Of a stretch of 64,000 bases of DNA, positions 1,548-61,863 are shown in pieces (position 1 is the first letter of the stretch; each line of letters begins with the position of its first letter). The notes under the pieces are model-generated. The model had not been told where the DNA came from. It did not search any database and was given only the letters and a program-made list of their open reading frames with translations. The translations under genes and the position numbers were made by a program. The stretch comes from Minisyncoccota bacterium (lineage in GTDB: Bacteria; Patescibacteriota; Minisyncoccia; Phycocordibacterales; JAQTLZ01): NCBI GenBank assembly GCA_028711065.1, contig JAQTSY010000005.1, positions 7,656-71,655 of the forward strand. Direction: 5' to 3'.

Positions 1548-2498
1548 TTATACGGCAGCTTTTTGTCTGCAAGCGTTTGAAGCCCTCACTCCTTCATTAT
1601 AGACCGCTGCATCGGCTTGTCTTGTCTCCACGAGTGAGTCGTACTCTGTCACGAGAGCGTTATATTCGACTACTCGCTTGTTGTATGTAGAATCATCGGA
1701 CGAAGCGTCTATCTCTGCTTTTTTGGCAATAAGGGTTTTCTCCAGACTGGCTATTTCTCCATCTTCAGATTCGATCTTGGCTTTGAGCGTTATGGAAGGT
1801 GCTGGGCAAGCAGTAGCAGGCAAGCCAAAGCTTTGCACTGCGATCCATGTTTCTTGTCCCTCGTAGAGACCTTTCCCGACAGCTACTCCGATTTCTTTGT
1901 ATTTTGGCTGCAAGATATTCTCCTTATGTCCCTCCGACGCCATCCACGCGGCGAGAAGTGTGGCGTCATCTTTAAAATTTCCAAGCGCGAGATTCTCTCC
2001 TACAATAATATAATCGTAGCCAACGCTTTTCGCCAGATCTCCCGGACCTACTCCGGAAGGAGAGACATGTTCAAAGTATTGTTTTGCGAACATATCCTGC
2101 ATTTTTTTCTGTGCATCGATATCAAGCAAAGAGTTTTCTTTGAGAGCAGGTACGGAAACCTTTGCTCTTTCAGCATTGGTGAGAGAGATAACTCCGCTTC
2201 GCGTGAGATTTCCGGTTTCCTTGTTGGAGGCAATCCGAAGCGGAGAAGGAGCGAAAATTTTCTCCGAAAGACCCTGGAGCGCAGGAATGATGCCGAGAGG
2301 AGACGTGGAGGGGCTTGGATTTTTAGTATTTTTGTTTCCTGTCTGTCCTAGAAATGTCAGAACTTTTTCAGGCACAAGGGCGCGTACATTTTCTAGTGCT
2401 CCTTGAAGACGCGACCACGAAAGGGGGACGTGTAGAAAATATGCGAGAATTATTATAACGAATACGATCGACAGTAAAAACTTGAAAAATTTCCACAT
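1548..2498 (-). CDS. Secreted CAP/SCP (PR-1/YkwD-like) domain protein with an N-terminal membrane anchor
   Basis: N-terminal TM helix. The C-terminal region carries a CAP-domain-like GENLALG...WMASEGHKENIL motif (compare SPGHR.NIL in YkwD). Confidence 0.6.
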   Translation of the reverse strand: MWKFFKFLLSIVFVIIILAYFLHVPLSWSRLQGALENVRALVPEKVLTFLGQTGNKNTKNPSPSTSPLGIIPALQGLSEKIFAPSPLRIASNKETGNLTRSGVISLTNAERAKVSVPALKENSLLDIDAQKKMQDMFAKQYFEHVSPSGVGPGDLAKSVGYDYIIVGENLALGNFKDDATLLAAWMASEGHKENILQPKYKEIGVAVGKGLYEGQETWIAVQSFGLPATACPAPSITLKAKIESEDGEIASLEKTLIAKKAEIDASSDDSTYNKRVVEYNALVTEYDSLVETRQADAAVYNEGVRASNACRQKAAV

Positions 2499-16827: not shown

Positions 16828-17066
16828 TTTGTATAAAAAAATAAAGACAAAAAATCCTTCTCGATGAAAGAAGGTGACGAAGAGACGCACGCGCGCACTC
16901 TTTAATCTCACATCCTTTACTCGAGGACTGACGAAACATACTTTCGTGCGCGGTATTCGGACTTCTCTTTTTCAAGAGTTACCGTAGCGGTACTGTGCCG
17001 GAATTACACCGGACTTCCCCAACGCAACGAAATAATTTTTCAAACACAACAATCAAAACCGGAAAC

Positions 17067-52745: not shown

Positions 52746-52855
52746 GATTCTTTGCGGGTCAGGGAGTGTCGGTCGTTACACGACCAGTATCCCGATTCGT
52801 TTTTTCTTTCAGAAAAAAGCTGAATCGGGCTTCGAGTCCCTGGGCCAGGAAACTC

Positions 52856-52919
52856 TTTCCCTACGGGAACAGTATCCCCGATGGATTTTTTAGACGCGCT
52901 CACGCGCTTTAAAAAATAC
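52856..52919 (-). repeat. Copy 1 of a conserved structured repeat module (candidate ncRNA or miniature mobile-element end), downstream of tRNA-Gln
   Basis: Minus strand reads GCCCCGATGAGTA-[TTTTTTAAAGCGCG-TGA-GCGCGTCTAAAAAA]-TCCATCGGGGATACTGTTCCCGTAGGGAAA. The 30-nt 3' block is identical to 61674-61703. It is flanked by antisense copies of a tRNA T-arm (GGGACTCGAAGCCCC). Confidence 0.45.
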
Positions 52920-52991
52920 TCATCGGGGCTTCGAGTCCCTGCCGAAGTAACCCCCGTTACTTCGGGCAGAAAATTTCCTTCGGAAATTTTG

Positions 52992-53062
52992 CTGCGGGTC
53001 AGGGACTCGAACCCCAATAACATCCTCCAGAGGGATGTGTCCTACCATTAGACGAACCCGCA
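52992..53062 (-). tRNA. tRNA-Gln (anticodon CTG)
   Basis: Manual cloverleaf: acceptor TGCGGGT/ACCCGCA (U1-A72, G73, as in bacterial tRNA-Gln), D-arm GTCT-AATGGTA-GGAC, anticodon stem CATCC/GGATG with loop CTCTGGA, T-arm TGGGG-TTCGAGT-CCCTG. No encoded CCA. Confidence 0.75.
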
Positions 53063-53083
53063 ATATTATAAATTCTCTAAAAT

Positions 53084-53139
53084 TGTCCTACCATTAGCCT
53101 GCCCGCGGACGGGCTTTGCCGGCCAGGGACGAACCCGCA
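53084..53139 (-). pseudogene. Partial duplicate of the 5' 25 nt of tRNA-Gln, interrupted by a 31-nt palindromic insert
   Basis: Minus strand: TTGCGGGTTCGTC + CCTGGCCGGCAAAGCCCGTCCGCGGGCAGGC + TAATGGTAGGACA. Compare the tRNA: TGCGGGTTCGTCTAATGGTAGGACA. Confidence 0.45.
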
Positions 53140-53283
53140 ATTCAATTACAGAAACAGAACTAAGCCCATAATACTAAACCAGCTTATACGAAAAATGACG
53201 AAAAATCCAATCCGCTCAAATAAAAACATGTAATCGAGTAAACCCGACTGCACGCTCATTTCCCAGAAGATGATTCTGTTCAC

Positions 53284-53655
53284 CTAAACGGCAACGCTCT
53301 CCCACCTCGAACGCTTGTTCTTCGAACCCGGCGGCCGTCCGCGGCGCGGCTTCGCCGGAAGCACAGGGGCCGAGGTTTCTTCCACGACTGCAGGAGCCGG
53401 CTCTTCCGAAACCGTAGCAGACGAAGTTTCCGGCACACTTGCACCCGAATCTTCAACCACAGTGACCTCCGAATCTGTAGCCGATGCGGTCGGCGAATCC
53501 GGAACTCCAAGAACCGCTCCCCGCCTGCCCTGAATAGAGCAACGCCCCTTTGCGTGGCGATTGCCCCCAGATGCCACGGGTTTGCGGCACAAATCACATG
53601 TACCGTTTGCCAATTGACCCTCCCTCTTGAAATGCGCTCCCATGATTAGGAGCAA
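53284..53655 (-). CDS. Small GC-rich ORF: Cys-containing N-terminus, acidic Ser/Thr/Glu-rich middle, C-terminal AT-hook (PRRGRPPGSKNK), hypothetical
   Basis: The DNA is far GC-richer than its surroundings. All frames are open here, so the coding call is uncertain. The RGRP AT-hook motif favours this frame. Confidence 0.3.
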   Translation of the reverse strand: MLLIMGAHFKREGQLANGTCDLCRKPVASGGNRHAKGRCSIQGRRGAVLGVPDSPTASATDSEVTVVEDSGASVPETSSATVSEEPAPAVVEETSAPVLPAKPRRGRPPGSKNKRSRWESVAV

Positions 53656-53733
53656 GAACCCCTCGTCTCCGGATCGCCAGAGACAGTAAAATCAAGCCAC
53701 TTTATAGCAAATTTTGAGAAAAATGTCGATGCA

Positions 53734-58120: not shown

Positions 58121-58127
58121 GATATGG

Positions 58128-58393
58128 AGCCGATGTCCGGGATTGAACCGGAGACCTCGTCATTCATCTATACCTTTATTTCACCTGACTGGGCTTATAA
58201 AAGGATTAGACTGTATCTTGCGCATACCTTTTCGGTTTAGCGTCCCTTGTCAGTCGTTCGAGCGCGTAGAGCGCTACGGTCTTATCCACTTGAATGGACT
58301 TTAACCGTAATTCGGGTTTCAACATTTCGTTTCCAAAATGAAGGGCAATTTTTGTTTACCAATGACGTGCTCTACCAACTGAGCTACATCGGC
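58128..58393 (-). tRNA. tRNA-Thr (anticodon GGT) interrupted by a roughly 193-nt intron between positions 36 and 37
   Basis: 5' exon GCCGATG-TA-GCTC-AGTTGGTA-GAGC-A-CGTCA-TTGGT (58393..58358). 3' exon AA-TGACG-AGGTC-TCCGG-TTCAATC-CCGGA-CATCGGC-T (58164..58128), with CCA encoded at 58127..58125. All stems are perfect once the insert is removed. Confidence 0.7.
58165..58357 (-). ncRNA. Candidate group I self-splicing intron in the tRNA-Thr(GGT) anticodon loop. No ORF.
   Basis: The 5' exon ends in U and the insert ends in G (GGTATAGATG|AA). The insert contains a GAACGACTGACAAGG block (like the P7 5'/R element GUUCAACGACUA) and an AAGATACAGTCTAA block (like the P7 3'/S element AAGAUAUAGUC), with GACTG/CAGTC able to form P7. 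The 193-nt size is near the known minimum (about 205 nt). Confidence 0.5.
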
Positions 58394-61481: not shown

Positions 61482-61553
61482 GCGGCTGTAGTTCAACGGT
61501 AGAACGCTCCCCTGTCACGGGAGAGGTCGTGGGGTCAGCACCCATCAGCCGCG
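61482..61553 (+). tRNA. tRNA-Asp (anticodon GTC) with a non-canonical T-loop
   Basis: Acceptor GCGGCTG/CAGCCGC, D-arm GTTC-AACGGTA-GAAC, anticodon stem CTCCC/GGGAG with loop CTGTCAC, T-arm GTGGG-GTCAGCA-CCCAT (not TTCGAAT-like), discriminator G, CCA encoded. Confidence 0.65.
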
Positions 61554-61556
61554 CCA

Positions 61557-61581
61557 ACAAAAACCCCGAAAGGGGTTTTTC
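61557..61581 (+). terminator. Rho-independent (bidirectional-type) terminator after the tRNA-Met/Asp pair
   Basis: AAAAACCCC-GAAA-GGGGTTTTT perfect hairpin with flanking A and T tracts. Confidence 0.6.
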
Positions 61582-61629
61582 GTTTGGCGCGGCTAGAAAG
61601 CGCGGGACGCTTTCGTGATGGGTGCTGAC

Positions 61630-61704
61630 GCCCCGATGAGTAGATTTTGTCGCGCGAAGGCGCGAACAAAATCTCCATCGGGGATACTGTTCCCGTAGGG
61701 AAAA
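61630..61704 (+). repeat. Copy 2 of the conserved structured repeat module (candidate ncRNA or miniature mobile-element end), downstream of tRNA-Asp
   Basis: GCCCCGATGAGTAG-[ATTTTGTCGCGCG-AAG-GCGCGAACAAAAT]-CTCCATCGGGGATACTGTTCCCGTAGGGAAAA. It is flanked by GGGTGCTGAC (61621-30 and 61722-31), which is antisense to the unusual tRNA-Asp T-arm GTCAGCACCC. Confidence 0.45.
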
Positions 61705-61863
61705 GCACCCGTGGGTGCTGACGACCTTTTGAGCCTAAAATTTGCGAAGCAAAATTTTAGCCAAAAGGTGTACTGCGGCTGTAAGCCGAAGCGCCCATCT
61801 AATTAAAAGCACCCATCAGTCAACCGACCACATTCAAAAATTATTTCCTGCTATAATGAATCA

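Follow-up and report, generated by a model that had tools for sequence, protein, structure and literature searches.

The window analysed here is a stretch of 64,000 nucleotides (nt) from a Minisyncoccota bacterium (GenBank assembly GCA_028711065.1, contig JAQTSY010000005.1), in which an intact tRNA-Gln gene has pyrG, a small ORF and a PRTase-like operon as its neighbours. Along the strand of the tRNA, the locus contains the following features:

53284-53646, minus strand: small GC-rich ORF of 120 amino acids with an N-terminal CxxC...H...C motif and a basic, AT-hook-like C-terminus
53128-53141, minus strand: displaced 5′ end of tRNA-Gln, ATTGCGGGTTCGTC, an exact 14-nt direct repeat of 53051-53064
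53098-53127, minus strand: GC-rich hairpin of 30 nt, CCTGGCCGGCAAAGCCCGTCCGCGGGCAGG, which splits the displaced 5′ fragment
53084-53097, minus strand: displaced tRNA-Gln nt 13-26, CTAATGGTAGGACA, an exact 14-nt direct repeat of 53038-53051
53063-53083, minus strand: AT-rich 21-nt spacer, ATTTTAGAGAATTTATAATAT, from the displaced 5′ fragment to the functional tRNA
52991-53062, minus strand: intact tRNA-Gln(CUG), found by ARAGORN and by Rfam RF00005 (54.6 bits), identical in the relative L016
52970-52990, minus strand: tip1, a hairpin between an A-run and a U-run, AAAATTTCCGAAGGAAATTTT, directly 3′ of tRNA-Gln
52966-52969, minus strand: CTGC, antisense of the last bases of tRNA-Gln (GCAG)
52942-52965, minus strand: hp, a perfect 10-bp hairpin, CCGAAGTAAC GGGG GTTACTTCGG, from repeat analysis and folding
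52846-52941, minus strand: module B (model R1, 93.9 bits, E 1.6e-23)
52760-52842, minus strand: module A (model R1, 78.5 bits; MFE -34 kcal/mol, z -4.8)
52753-52765, minus strand: direct repeat TCCCTGACCCGCA, which copies nt 60 (in the T-loop) through nt 72 of tRNA-Gln

The 13-nt repeat of the tRNA-Gln 3′ end, TGCGGGTCAGGGA, to which an earlier note on this DNA had drawn attention, is real: it has two exact matches in the 64 kb, at 52753-52765 and 52993-53005, compared with none in 100 shuffles. The repeat ends at nt 72, the final acceptor-stem base of tRNA-Gln, and its distal copy closes module A, 7 nt short of the PRTase-like start codon (ATG). Between the two copies lie 225 nt of non-coding DNA, which hold two tandem modules of ~90 nt together with trailer hairpins. 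The T-arm-like 16-mer GGGCTTCGAGTCCCTG also exists on the plus strand, although its copies lie at 52827-52842 and 52926-52941 and not, as first given, at 52826 and 52918; it has three matches against 0.35 expected and differs by one base from the tRNA-Gln T-arm of the opposite strand. These pieces had been taken for separate debris, but they are the antisense arms of modules A and B.

In both Gln modules, the 5′ arm is the exact antisense of the T-loop and T-stem of tRNA-Gln. Module B is ordered as CAGGGACTCGAA (the antisense T-arm), G, P2 (CCCCGATG...CATCGGGG), ATACTG, P3 (TTCCC GTA GGGAA), AGAG and a terminal TTTCCTG that represents a decayed sense copy, and its three-way junction has an MFE of -44.1 kcal/mol (z -4.6). 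Module A, which occupies the position of the single module of L016, is ordered as CAGGGACTCGAA, G, P2 (CCCGATTC...GAATCGGG), ATACTG, P3 (GTCGT GTA ACGAC), CGACAC and TCCCTG. Between tRNA-Gln and module B, the CTGC at 52966-52969 is an abbreviated version of the antisense acceptor arm found at other loci, with its full-length equivalent, TGGCGCGGCT, at 61585-61594 of the tRNA-Asp locus, while hp interrupts the antisense arm at the boundary of acceptor and T-stem. An equivalent hairpin occurs in the same position at the Asp, Arg, Ser, Glu, Val and Gly loci and at the Gln locus of L006. A consensus scan detected no promoter between the element and the PRTase-like gene at the Gln locus, where there is also no room for one, so the Gln modules are probably transcribed.

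A second host of the element, tRNA-Asp, is found in the same window. Its trailer spans 61557-61819, 8.5 kb from the Gln locus, and its arms match tRNA-Asp:

61482-61556, plus strand: tRNA-Asp(GUC), found by ARAGORN and the Rfam scan
61557-61616, plus strand: first part of the Asp trailer, with tip1 (61557-61584), the antisense acceptor arm (61585-61594) and hp (61595-61616)
61617-61710, plus strand: module Asp1 (model R1, 82.2 bits; MFE -54.4 kcal/mol, z -6.7)
61711-61796, plus strand: module Asp2 (folding z -4.6), a member of alignment A1
61808-61819, plus strand: direct repeat of the tRNA-Asp 3′ part, AGCACCCATCAG, a 12-nt exact sense match to the tRNA

As at other loci, tip1 of the Asp trailer is a terminator-like hairpin, and the arm TGGCGCGGCT is the antisense of the acceptor 3′ strand, CCA included. 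Asp1 consists of the antisense T-arm GATGGGTGCTGAC, a type-1 core and the sense segment GCACCC. Asp2, which under default filters is not among the matches of model R1, consists of GTGGGTGCTGAC, a type-2 core (GACCTTTTG...CAAAAGGT GTACTG CGGC TGTAA GCCG) and the sense segment GCGCCCATC.

Pattern scans and model R1 together yielded 17-18 modules, the scans of the sequence collection having used an exact pattern drawn from the window, so that the sample is small and biased to one core type. These modules are distributed over the window, L002, L003, L004, L006, L009 and L016, in at least six genomes, and accompany 10 tRNA species: Gln, Asp, Arg(GCG), Arg(TCG), Pro, Gly, Ser(TGA), Glu, Val and Thr(GGT). 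The carrier contigs belong to Saccharibacteria and other Patescibacteria, and the copy number reaches four modules in the 64-kb window and three in 8 kb of L003. All modules share the orientation of the tRNA strand, and all lie 3′ of a tRNA save a weaker copy upstream of tRNA-Glu in L009 and a copy in L007 that has no tRNA in reach. Pattern matches in L001, L005 and L008 were rejected as chance hits, as they have no tRNA nearby and no model match; those in L001 and L008 sit in apparent coding sequence.

Each copy of the element runs, on the tRNA strand, in the order S, tip1, S′, core, S. S is the 3′ part of the copy's own tRNA from the T-loop to the 3′ end, sometimes extending 4-6 nt further; tip1 is a terminator-like hairpin; and S′ is the antisense of S, with T54 as its exact end point and with hp inserted where the acceptor meets the T-stem. 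The core is a three-way junction made of GAAG, P2 with an AGY/C internal loop, RUACUG and a 5-bp P3 with a GUA loop, and GAAG, AGY/C, RUACUG and GUA are its conserved unpaired nucleotides. Each module of ~90 nt contains P1, a long P2, AUACUG and P3 with its GUA loop. Minimal modules (S′T, core, S) can be stacked, as seen in the pairs behind tRNA-Gln and tRNA-Asp of the window, and at the L009 tRNA-Val the whole unit of ~226 nt is tandemly repeated. At about half of the loci the tRNA is separated from the module by a strong terminator-like hairpin, and another terminator comes after the repeat. When the tRNA 3′ part and the trailer are folded together, S, tip1 and S′ form a hairpin with hp as a branch (z -9.2 for Gln and -13.5 for Asp, where the fold was made as DNA and the antisense arm pairs with the tRNA 3′ part).

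The stems of the core covary strongly. In 19 of 22 P2/P3 pairs both sides have changed, and 93.5% of the P2/P3 alignment cells are paired compared with 42-57% when the partners are slid; the observed pairing values were reached by none of 500 shuffles. These stems comprise 259 Watson-Crick pairs, one G-T and one A-C, and therefore hold too few wobble pairs for a strand test to decide. The few G-U pairs of P1 and the arms are all on the tRNA-sense strand. The arms, in turn, follow the tRNA: 10 of the 12 trailers carry an exact antisense match of 10-14 nt to their own tRNA that starts at T54 (a mismatch shortens it to 8 nt in L003-Gly and 6 nt in L009-Val), every one of the 12 carries a sense repeat of 7-20 nt, and matches to other tRNAs are limited to 4-9 nt unless the T-arms are related. 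Overall, the arms match their target over 10-23 nt and co-vary with it, for example at tRNA-Arg(GCG) of L002 and L004. The modules constitute a well-defined, covarying, non-coding family, previously uncatalogued and outside Rfam 15, which the model now makes searchable.

As the earlier note had proposed, syntenic loci were compared for empty sites. Homologues of the PRTase-like gene proved distant (30-32% identical) and not syntenic, and PyrG was used in their place. The closest relative, L016 (PyrG 87% identical), has tRNA-Gln with one module and a 15-nt repeat. Four further syntenic loci, from the more distant L022, L023, L025/L026 and L027 (PyrG 76-78% identical), have tRNA-Gln after pyrG with no element, even though T-arm and acceptor are unchanged in L023 and L027. 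Because these four loci lack it, the DNA that separates tRNA-Gln from its 3′-end repeat at the pyrG-tRNA-Gln locus is an insertion, and the element was gained in the lineage of the window and L016. Occupancy varies between relatives at other tRNAs too: L004 has the element at tRNA-Ser(TGA) and L002 an empty site, and L016 has it at tRNA-Thr(GGT), where the window does not.

Between the window and L016, tip1, hp (identical in the two) and the antisense arm are 100% conserved, apart from the symmetric loss of one A and one T in the L016 tip1, whereas the core has changed. The orthologous pair, GlnA and the Gln module of L016, has a core identity of only 72%, compared with 86% between L003-Arg and L016-Thr and 82% between GlnB and Asp1 of the window. 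The cores follow neither genome nor tRNA.

The displaced 5′ copy of tRNA-Gln is a separate alteration of the locus. The segment at 53128-53141 covers the two bases that precede the gene and nt 1-12, and it is missing upstream of tRNA-Gln in L016, L022, L023, L025 and L027. Since the 5′ fragment is confined to the window, the tRNA-Gln gene has been altered more than once, in agreement with the earlier suggestion of a locus hit repeatedly. The hairpin that had been reported to split the copy is present as well, with a length of 30 nt and not 31. Over 17 nt, its complementarity to 53335-53351 within the small GC-rich ORF is 82%, and a CRISPR-DR28 assignment was rejected as noise (17.8 bits in Rfam against the 35 required). 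The spacer at 53063-53083 contains a TATAAT-like hexamer that the consensus scan did not call a promoter. Orthology between the region upstream of the displaced fragment and that upstream of the L016 tRNA was not significant, with 87 of 300 shuffles scoring equally.

Upstream of this fragment, the segment 53284-53655 has 56-62% G+C compared with 35-47% in its flanks, and its ORF ends in PRRGRPPGSKNK, which was assessed by the AT-hook core criterion of R-G-R-P in a basic context. The unusual composition and the AT-hook-like ORF had been noticed correctly, but their attribution to foreign cargo does not hold. The ORF has no Pfam match and no real match in phage and plasmid databases, and its sole match among 5.8 billion proteins is a 97-amino acid, 99%-identical protein of a Candidatus Pacebacteria MAG. 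The syntenic ORF of L016 (10941-11147) has the same N-terminal CxxC...H...C motif, with 17 of 29 residues identical (E 6e-11); the AT-hook-like tail is not kept in this homologue, whose basic tail differs. The GC-rich ORF is a native, lineage-specific small gene and a neighbour unrelated to the element.

Searches for known families gave no counterpart of the element. No Rfam 15 family matches it (up to E 10 at the locus and up to E 0.1 at four others), and apart from tRNA the scans of the five loci gave nothing but noise below the threshold. Hammerhead, C/D-box, T-box, twister, pistol, hatchet and HDV-like assignments were set aside, as the core sequences do not fit and Rfam returned nothing. 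No integrase (including the tyrosine integrase that the earlier note had proposed to look for), transposase or reverse transcriptase adjoins any copy in the fetched flanks by Pfam, and no DEDD or HUH gene was seen near any copy in the same flanks. Phage, plasmid and viral-contig searches found no free, excised, phage-borne or plasmid-borne form: the tRNA-Gln and its trailer matched only tRNA-Gln genes in the phage and plasmid search, and the viral-contig scans gave nothing, with all nine loose-pattern matches failing the model. A full-text literature search found no description of such a tRNA-trailing element; one paper concerns group I introns in Patescibacteria tRNAs (PMC13011429).

What these loci carry is best read as a non-coding, probably mobile family that targets tRNA 3′ ends, with a mechanism that we infer only. 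To the fuller statement, that small non-coding elements built of hairpins, of a family not described before, occupy the 3′ flank of Patescibacteria tRNA genes as selfish, non-autonomous mobile DNA, we give an even chance. The element would enter the tRNA gene at the T-loop, and as it would bring a replacement 3′ end and a terminator, the tRNA would stay intact and the original 3′ end would remain as the direct repeat. The most likely route would be recombination through a folded single-stranded attachment site, in which the S-tip1-S′ hairpin would imitate a double-stranded target as do CTX-phage attP or integron attC, with the reaction carried out by an enzyme encoded elsewhere. The whole unit would then correspond to an unrolled dumbbell of ~200-230 nt.

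Mobility is favoured by the shuffling of cores across genomes and tRNAs, the filled and empty differences between relatives, and the tandem unit of L009. Hints of action at the DNA level are the near-pure Watson-Crick stems, the terminator-like hairpins around the module and the S-tip1-S′ fold. Against a mobile element stand the lack of a recombinase, transposase or reverse transcriptase beside the copies and of a free form, as well as the tRNA-specificity of the arms, since a new tRNA needs both S and S′ rewritten. We know of no established mechanism that rewrites both on a move to a new tRNA. The conserved unpaired nucleotides are equally typical of functional RNA, the Gln modules are probably transcribed, and the invariance of tip1, hp and antisense arm between the window and L016 could reflect selection on RNA.

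The element resembles several classes of mobile DNA. Like the integrative elements that target tRNA genes, it lies 3′ of an intact tRNA and is bounded by a direct repeat that copies the tRNA from the T-loop onward and may run a few bases past the gene, and relatives have empty sites. Unlike them, it spans 90-330 nt, is non-coding, lacks an integrase and cargo genes, and has an extra inverted copy of the target, and one core occurs at many tRNAs with the arms re-specified. With integron attC and CTX attP(+) it shares the imperfect palindrome whose folded strand imitates a double-stranded target, an extrahelical feature on one arm (here hp), a variable tip, tandem arrays, and the order expected after integration, namely target copy, loop, inverted copy, body and target copy. 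However, the closing boxes of attC are conserved and its tip is variable, whereas here the arms vary with the tRNA and the core, in the place of the tip, is conserved. In addition, neither R″/R′ boxes (RYYYAAC...GTTRRRY) nor dif-like XerC/XerD arms were noticed on reading the sequences, and the element has no cargo gene or phage genome. MITEs and REP/REPIN sequences are similarly short, non-coding, intergenic and hairpin-forming, occur in several copies per genome and are presumably mobilised in trans. The element differs from MITEs in the absence of shared terminal inverted repeats, its inverted arms being local tRNA copies and only the internal core being common, and from MITEs and REP/REPIN alike in its strict tRNA 3′-end target, fixed orientation and three-way-junction core with conserved unpaired bases.

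A cis-acting RNA is a possible alternative, though we lean against it. The modules would share a transcript with the tRNA, and their antisense arm (segment 2) would pair in two alternative ways: with the tRNA 3′ third (segment 1), blocking folding or processing of the cloverleaf, or with the downstream sense copy (segment 3), closing the three-way junction. A junction-binding protein or ligand would choose between the two and so control how the tRNA matures or whether the downstream mRNA is released. In another version, the closed form would be a minihelix that resembles a tRNA and is a substrate of RNase P or RNase Z. The choice between 1:2 and 2:3 pairing is present at every locus, and hp emerges where the body of a tRNA would lie, between the acceptor and T stems. 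Conserved junction and loop nucleotides with covarying stems, the constant orientation of the modules with the tRNA, the end of module A 7 nt before the next ATG with no promoter between, the invariance of tip1, hp and arm between the window and L016, and the placement of the few G-U pairs of P1 and the arms on the tRNA-sense strand are all consistent with such an RNA. This is countered by the near absence of G-U among 260 P2/P3 pairs, by the strong terminator-like hairpins between tRNA and module at about half of the loci, and by the many tRNAs, including the same tRNA in close relatives, that have no element. The cores are moreover shuffled between loci and lineages, and the origin of the arms would still require copying at the DNA level. 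Like HDV-like theta ribozymes, hammerheads and tRNA-like structures, the element is a structured unit directly 3′ of a tRNA, with a three-way junction and short conserved joining strands, and in its closed arms it reproduces a tRNA's acceptor and T-stem strand. On the other hand, it has no Rfam 15 match, its T-loop is replaced by the core, and its joining strands (GAAG, RUACUG and 0-1 nt) differ from those of the hammerhead (CUGANGA, GAAA and H).

A nucleic-acid-guided or replicon-like element is unlikely. In the guided form, the antisense arm, as RNA or single-stranded DNA, would guide insertion into the tRNA gene that it matches, in the manner of IS110 bridge RNAs or the exon-binding sites of group II introns. 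In the replicon form, each copy would be the DNA version of a dumbbell or viroid-like circle of ~200-230 nt, which would arise by rolling-circle copying, be cleaved by enzymes of tRNA processing or by the three-way junction as a ribozyme, and re-insert by homology to the tRNA gene. The length of the target match and its covariation with the tRNA, the sharp boundary at T54 and the lack of any protein encoded by the element fit these schemes, and the alternation of S, tip1, S′, core and S with the tandem whole unit looks like an unrolled dumbbell. Both schemes are opposed by the lack of a DEDD, reverse transcriptase or HUH gene near any copy, of a matching ribozyme family and of a circular or free form in the data, which leaves them resting on geometry, and by the reported absence of group II introns from Patescibacteria (PMC13011429). 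The bridge (seek) RNAs of IS110/IS1111 likewise have antisense and sense target segments that flank a conserved stem-loop; here, however, no DEDD recombinase gene is adjacent in the fetched flanks, both guides (10-23 nt) cover identical target bases and are complementary to one another, and a donor-binding loop cannot be recognised. The element may even be a protein-less, programmable parasite of tRNA genes, whose antisense arm (RNA or folded single-stranded DNA) recognises the stretch from T-loop to 3′ end in any tRNA gene that it matches and directs insertion to that site, and whose unit is the genomic copy of a dumbbell or viroid-like circle of ~200-230 nt, replicated as a rolling circle and cleaved either by enzymes that process tRNAs or by its own three-way junction, a doubtful proposal to which we grant a minor chance.

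The classical scar favoured by the earlier note, in which a tyrosine integrase would have placed a prophage or island into the tRNA-Gln 3′ end between attL and attR, later deleted to ~230 bp with the ORF as leftover cargo, would account for the direct repeat, the empty sites and the position at the T-loop, a crossover sublocation for integrases as Williams is said to have described in 2002, but it is highly improbable: the insert is a complete, conserved, covarying structure that recurs in several genomes and behind many tRNAs (including tRNA-Asp), it has neither an integrase nor any resemblance to phage, plasmid or viral sequences, and the ORF, syntenic in L016, sits across the tRNA from the insert and beyond the repeats.

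Patescibacteria have tiny genomes, yet these elements are tolerated behind many of their tRNA genes. The family accounts for the stray 'tRNA fragments' of these genomes and for their antisense T-arm pieces and long, structured trailers, all of which annotators should expect. If the arms are guides or a folded mimic of the target, the element would be a compact, natural and protein-less means of directing insertion by sequence at tRNA genes; should the modules work as RNA, these would be the first tRNA genes with a built-in competitor for their own 3′ third.

The sequence features that the earlier note had reported around tRNA-Gln, and had read as an integration or excision scar, are all present in the window. 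The 13 nt at 52753-52765 are an exact copy of sequence from the 3′ end of the tRNA gene (two exact matches in the window versus none in 100 shuffles), and on its 5′ side two exact 14-mers, separated by a 30-nt GC-rich hairpin, duplicate nucleotides 1-26 together with the two preceding bases. The 16-mer GGGCTTCGAGTCCCTG occurs on the plus strand at 52827 and 52926, with one mismatch to the complement of the tRNA-Gln T-arm. On the tRNA strand, a regular build is evident in the 225 nt that separate tRNA-Gln from its 3′-end repeat: the tRNA is followed by a hairpin (tip1), CTGC, a second hairpin (hp), and two modules in tandem (GlnB, 96 nt, then GlnA, 83 nt). Both modules open with CAGGGACTCGAA, the exact antisense of the T-loop and the 3′ strand of the T-stem, ending at the complement of T54, and continue with G, P2, AUACUG, P3, a few bases, and the sense strand. 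The parts are as follows:

52991-53062, minus strand: tRNA-Gln(CUG)
tip1: hairpin between an A-run and a U-run
CTGC: antisense of the final tRNA-Gln bases
hp: perfect 10-bp hairpin
P1, in the modules: module start paired with the terminal sense copy of the T-stem 3′ strand
P2, in the modules: long hairpin GCCCCGAUGAGY...CCAUCGGGG
P3, in the modules: 5-bp hairpin with a GUA loop

All modules fold into a three-way junction (z −4.6 to −7.5), with the 13-nt repeat as the closing strand of the second Gln module. It follows from this fold that the T-arm-like repeats on the plus strand are not separate fragments, as had been thought, but the antisense arms of the two modules.

A search of the window with module segments uncovered a second locus at 61677, directly behind tRNA-Asp. 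Here the order is tRNA-Asp, a terminator-like hairpin, TGGCGCGGCT, a hairpin, GATGGGTGCTGAC, two modules (Asp1 and Asp2), and AGCACCCATCAG:

TGGCGCGGCT: antisense of the tRNA-Asp acceptor 3′ strand, CCA included
GATGGGTGCTGAC: antisense of the unusual T-loop and stem of tRNA-Asp
AGCACCCATCAG: sense copy of the tRNA-Asp 3′ part

The core (the P2/P3 part) of the first Asp module has 30 identical bases in common with GlnB, and the second has a different core, termed type 2. Comparison of the two loci thus reveals a core common to both and arms that belong to the local tRNA. The tRNA-Asp gene itself (61482-61556) has the T-loop GUCAGCA instead of the usual UUCRANY and an encoded CCA end, yet reaches a tRNA score of 58 bits.

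Thirteen modules were aligned, and at 19 of the 22 P2/P3 pairs both partners vary. Paired cells amount to 93.5%, against 42-57% when partners are slid by 1-3 columns, and none of 500 shuffles equaled the observed values. Among unpaired bases, conservation is seen in GAAG 5′ of P2, in the AGY/C internal loop that interrupts P2, in RUACUG, and in the loop GUA. None of the module copies matches a family in Rfam 15, and a full-text literature search, whose incomplete coverage leaves room for a description elsewhere, returned no account of such an element.

An exact pattern derived from the window was run against GTDB genomes and JGI metagenomes (one scan each), followed by a simple regular expression and then a covariance model of the module (R1). 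The sample of about 17-18 modules is small and biased to one core type, because the exact pattern was taken from the window. The window itself belongs to a "Candidatus Pacebacteria" MAG, going by the source names attached to identical proteins. Carriers outside the window are two MAGs with record titles naming Saccharibacteria (L002, L003), four metagenome contigs (L004, L006, L007/L009), and the closest relative of the window (L016), with Arg(GCG) twice, Arg(TCG), Pro, Gly, Ser(TGA), Gln, Glu, Val, and Thr(GGT) as host tRNAs. Modules are on the tRNA strand in all loci found, and downstream of the tRNA except in two weaker copies: in L009 the module precedes tRNA-Glu, and in L007 no tRNA is in reach. 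No module accompanies tRNAs Thr(CGT), Met, or intron-bearing Thr(GGT) of the window, nor Ser(TGA) of L002, Leu of L003, or Ser(CGA) of L009, which share contigs with filled tRNAs. R1 detects modules at 70-97 bits, and in the window recovers three of the four known modules (Asp2 is missed) and no further matches.

Several copies depart from the common form. In L009 (1817-2143, plus strand), nucleotides 1-35 of tRNA-Glu and about 40 nt of upstream flank are copied, followed by a hairpin, a type-2 core (R1 43 bits), and the complete tRNA-Glu; the copied flank occurs once more further upstream. This layout suggests arrays that duplicate a 5′ half, comparable to the displaced 5′ fragment in the window. 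The arms of the L007 module (1988-2059, minus strand; R1 29.6 bits) are TGTCATTCCCG / CGGGAATGACA, and its P3 is followed, ahead of the closing strand, by two additional repeated hairpins. This contig contains no tRNA, although it extends only 68 nt upstream of the module; the element may not be confined to tRNAs, or this tRNA may lie beyond the contig end. In L006, two small GIY-YIG nuclease-family ORFs (1412-1774 and ~2190-2440, plus strand) lie on either side of tRNA-Gln and the element, and the element is separated from its tRNA by a second tRNA-Gln-like copy with hairpins in place of the D-arm and an altered acceptor strand. Between P3 and the closing strand, modules in L004 (9831-9941, minus strand) and L006 (2038-2148, plus strand) have the same insertion of 14 nt, AAAYGTACTCATGG, whose CUCAU could pair with AUGAG of the P2 5′ strand. 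In L003 (4440-6100), the loop CATACTAAATG occurs in each of the three hp/tip hairpins, which follow tRNA-Pro, Gly, and Arg, and the distal P2 stems are nearly identical, a homogeneity within one genome across tRNA loci.

The arms follow the host tRNA closely. Across 12 loci, the longest exact antisense match between the trailer and the final 26 nt of the host tRNA spans 10-14 nt, starting in every case at T54, with two loci falling short by one mismatch each; matches to non-host tRNAs reach 4-9 nt except where T-arms are related. At these loci the sense repeat (7-20 nt) starts inside the T-loop (nt 54-60), and in several extends 4-6 nt beyond the gene. Differing tRNA-Arg(GCG) genes in L002 and L004 each have matching arms, and wherever a full antisense acceptor arm exists, hp sits exactly at the acceptor/T-stem boundary. 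The order is everywhere S, tip1, S′, core, S, where S is the tRNA 3′ part and S′ its antisense. S′ has two possible partners, the 3′ third of its own tRNA on the far side of tip1 and the downstream S on the far side of the core, and the minimum-energy fold takes the former (z −9.2 and −13.5). Formally, the arrangement is an unrolled dumbbell: the tRNA gene between T54 and its 3′ end forms the stem, and tip1 and the core are the caps. At tRNA-Val in L009, the entire unit of ~226 nt is tandemly repeated.

The segment at 53284-53655 is GC-rich and contains an ORF with the tail PRRGRPPGSKNK, as the earlier note stated; its foreign origin did not hold. The ORF has no Pfam family and no match in phage or plasmid searches, and its sole match among 5.8 billion proteins is a 97-aa protein, 99% identical, annotated from a Candidatus Pacebacteria MAG. 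At the equivalent position L016 has an uncalled 69-codon ORF with the N-terminal CxxC...H...C in common (17/29 identical, E 6e-11) and a different basic tail. The ORF is a native, fast-evolving small gene, outside the repeats and no part of the element.

Syntenic loci were located through PyrG homologues. In L016 (PyrG 87% identical), pyrG and the small ORF are followed by a tRNA-Gln identical to that of the window, with identical tip1, CTGC, hp, and antisense arm, one module with a different core, and a 15-nt repeat; the displaced 5′ fragment is absent. The proposed empty sites do exist: in L022, L023, L025/L026, and L027 (PyrG 76-78% identical), tRNA-Gln follows pyrG with no element, and L023 and L027 do not differ from the window in its T-arm and acceptor. 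The filled and empty loci together show that the element was gained in the lineage of the window and L016, and that the second Gln module and the displaced 5′ fragment arrived later. Core identity is 86% between L003-Arg(TCG) and L016-Thr, across classes of Patescibacteria, and 82% between GlnB and Asp1, against 72% between the positional orthologues GlnA and L016-Gln. Core similarity thus tracks neither host nor tRNA, which speaks for cores having been exchanged or moved from one locus or lineage to another.

Two further features of the window were observed. The tRNA-Thr(GGU) gene at 58125-58393 (minus strand) is split at its anticodon loop by an intervening sequence of 193 nt (~58164-58356); the gene was missed by ARAGORN and Rfam, its spliced form is called tRNA-Thr(ggt), and its L016 orthologue is intronless. 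The insert fits the divergent group I introns described at position 36/37 of Patescibacteria tRNA-Thr (PMC13011429). An AdoCbl (cobalamin) riboswitch lies at 16903-17044 (minus strand; 60.5 bits, gathering score 50).

The modules could have a role as RNA, as their unpaired bases are conserved, they have a fixed orientation, the small number of wobble pairs in the arms is confined to the tRNA strand, a promoter scan found none between GlnA and the next gene, and the window and L016 do not differ at all in tip1, hp, or the arm. A reading at the level of DNA is favored by stems that are almost wholly Watson-Crick (259 pairs, with one G-T and one A-C), and by gain and loss, tandem amplification, and core shuffling. 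It is also favored by the strong terminator-like tip1 ahead of the module, with a second terminator past the repeat, at about half of the loci, since an element arriving with a 3′ end and terminator of its own would displace those of the host. The two readings are compatible and do not exclude each other. No candidate enzyme gene was found in the flanks examined of any element copy, and no free form in sequence scans that included viral contigs. The likeliest substrate would be the folded single-stranded S-tip1-S′ site, because the order of target copy, loop, inverted copy, body, and target copy is the outcome at CTX attP and integron attC, folded single-stranded sites whose post-integration order is also seen in this tRNA-trailing element. 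Perfect S′ complementarity may be kept by selection or by template-switch "palindrome correction." We give an even chance to the family being a non-autonomous mobile element that would enter tRNA genes at the T-loop and supply a replacement 3′ end, the displaced original remaining as the direct repeat.
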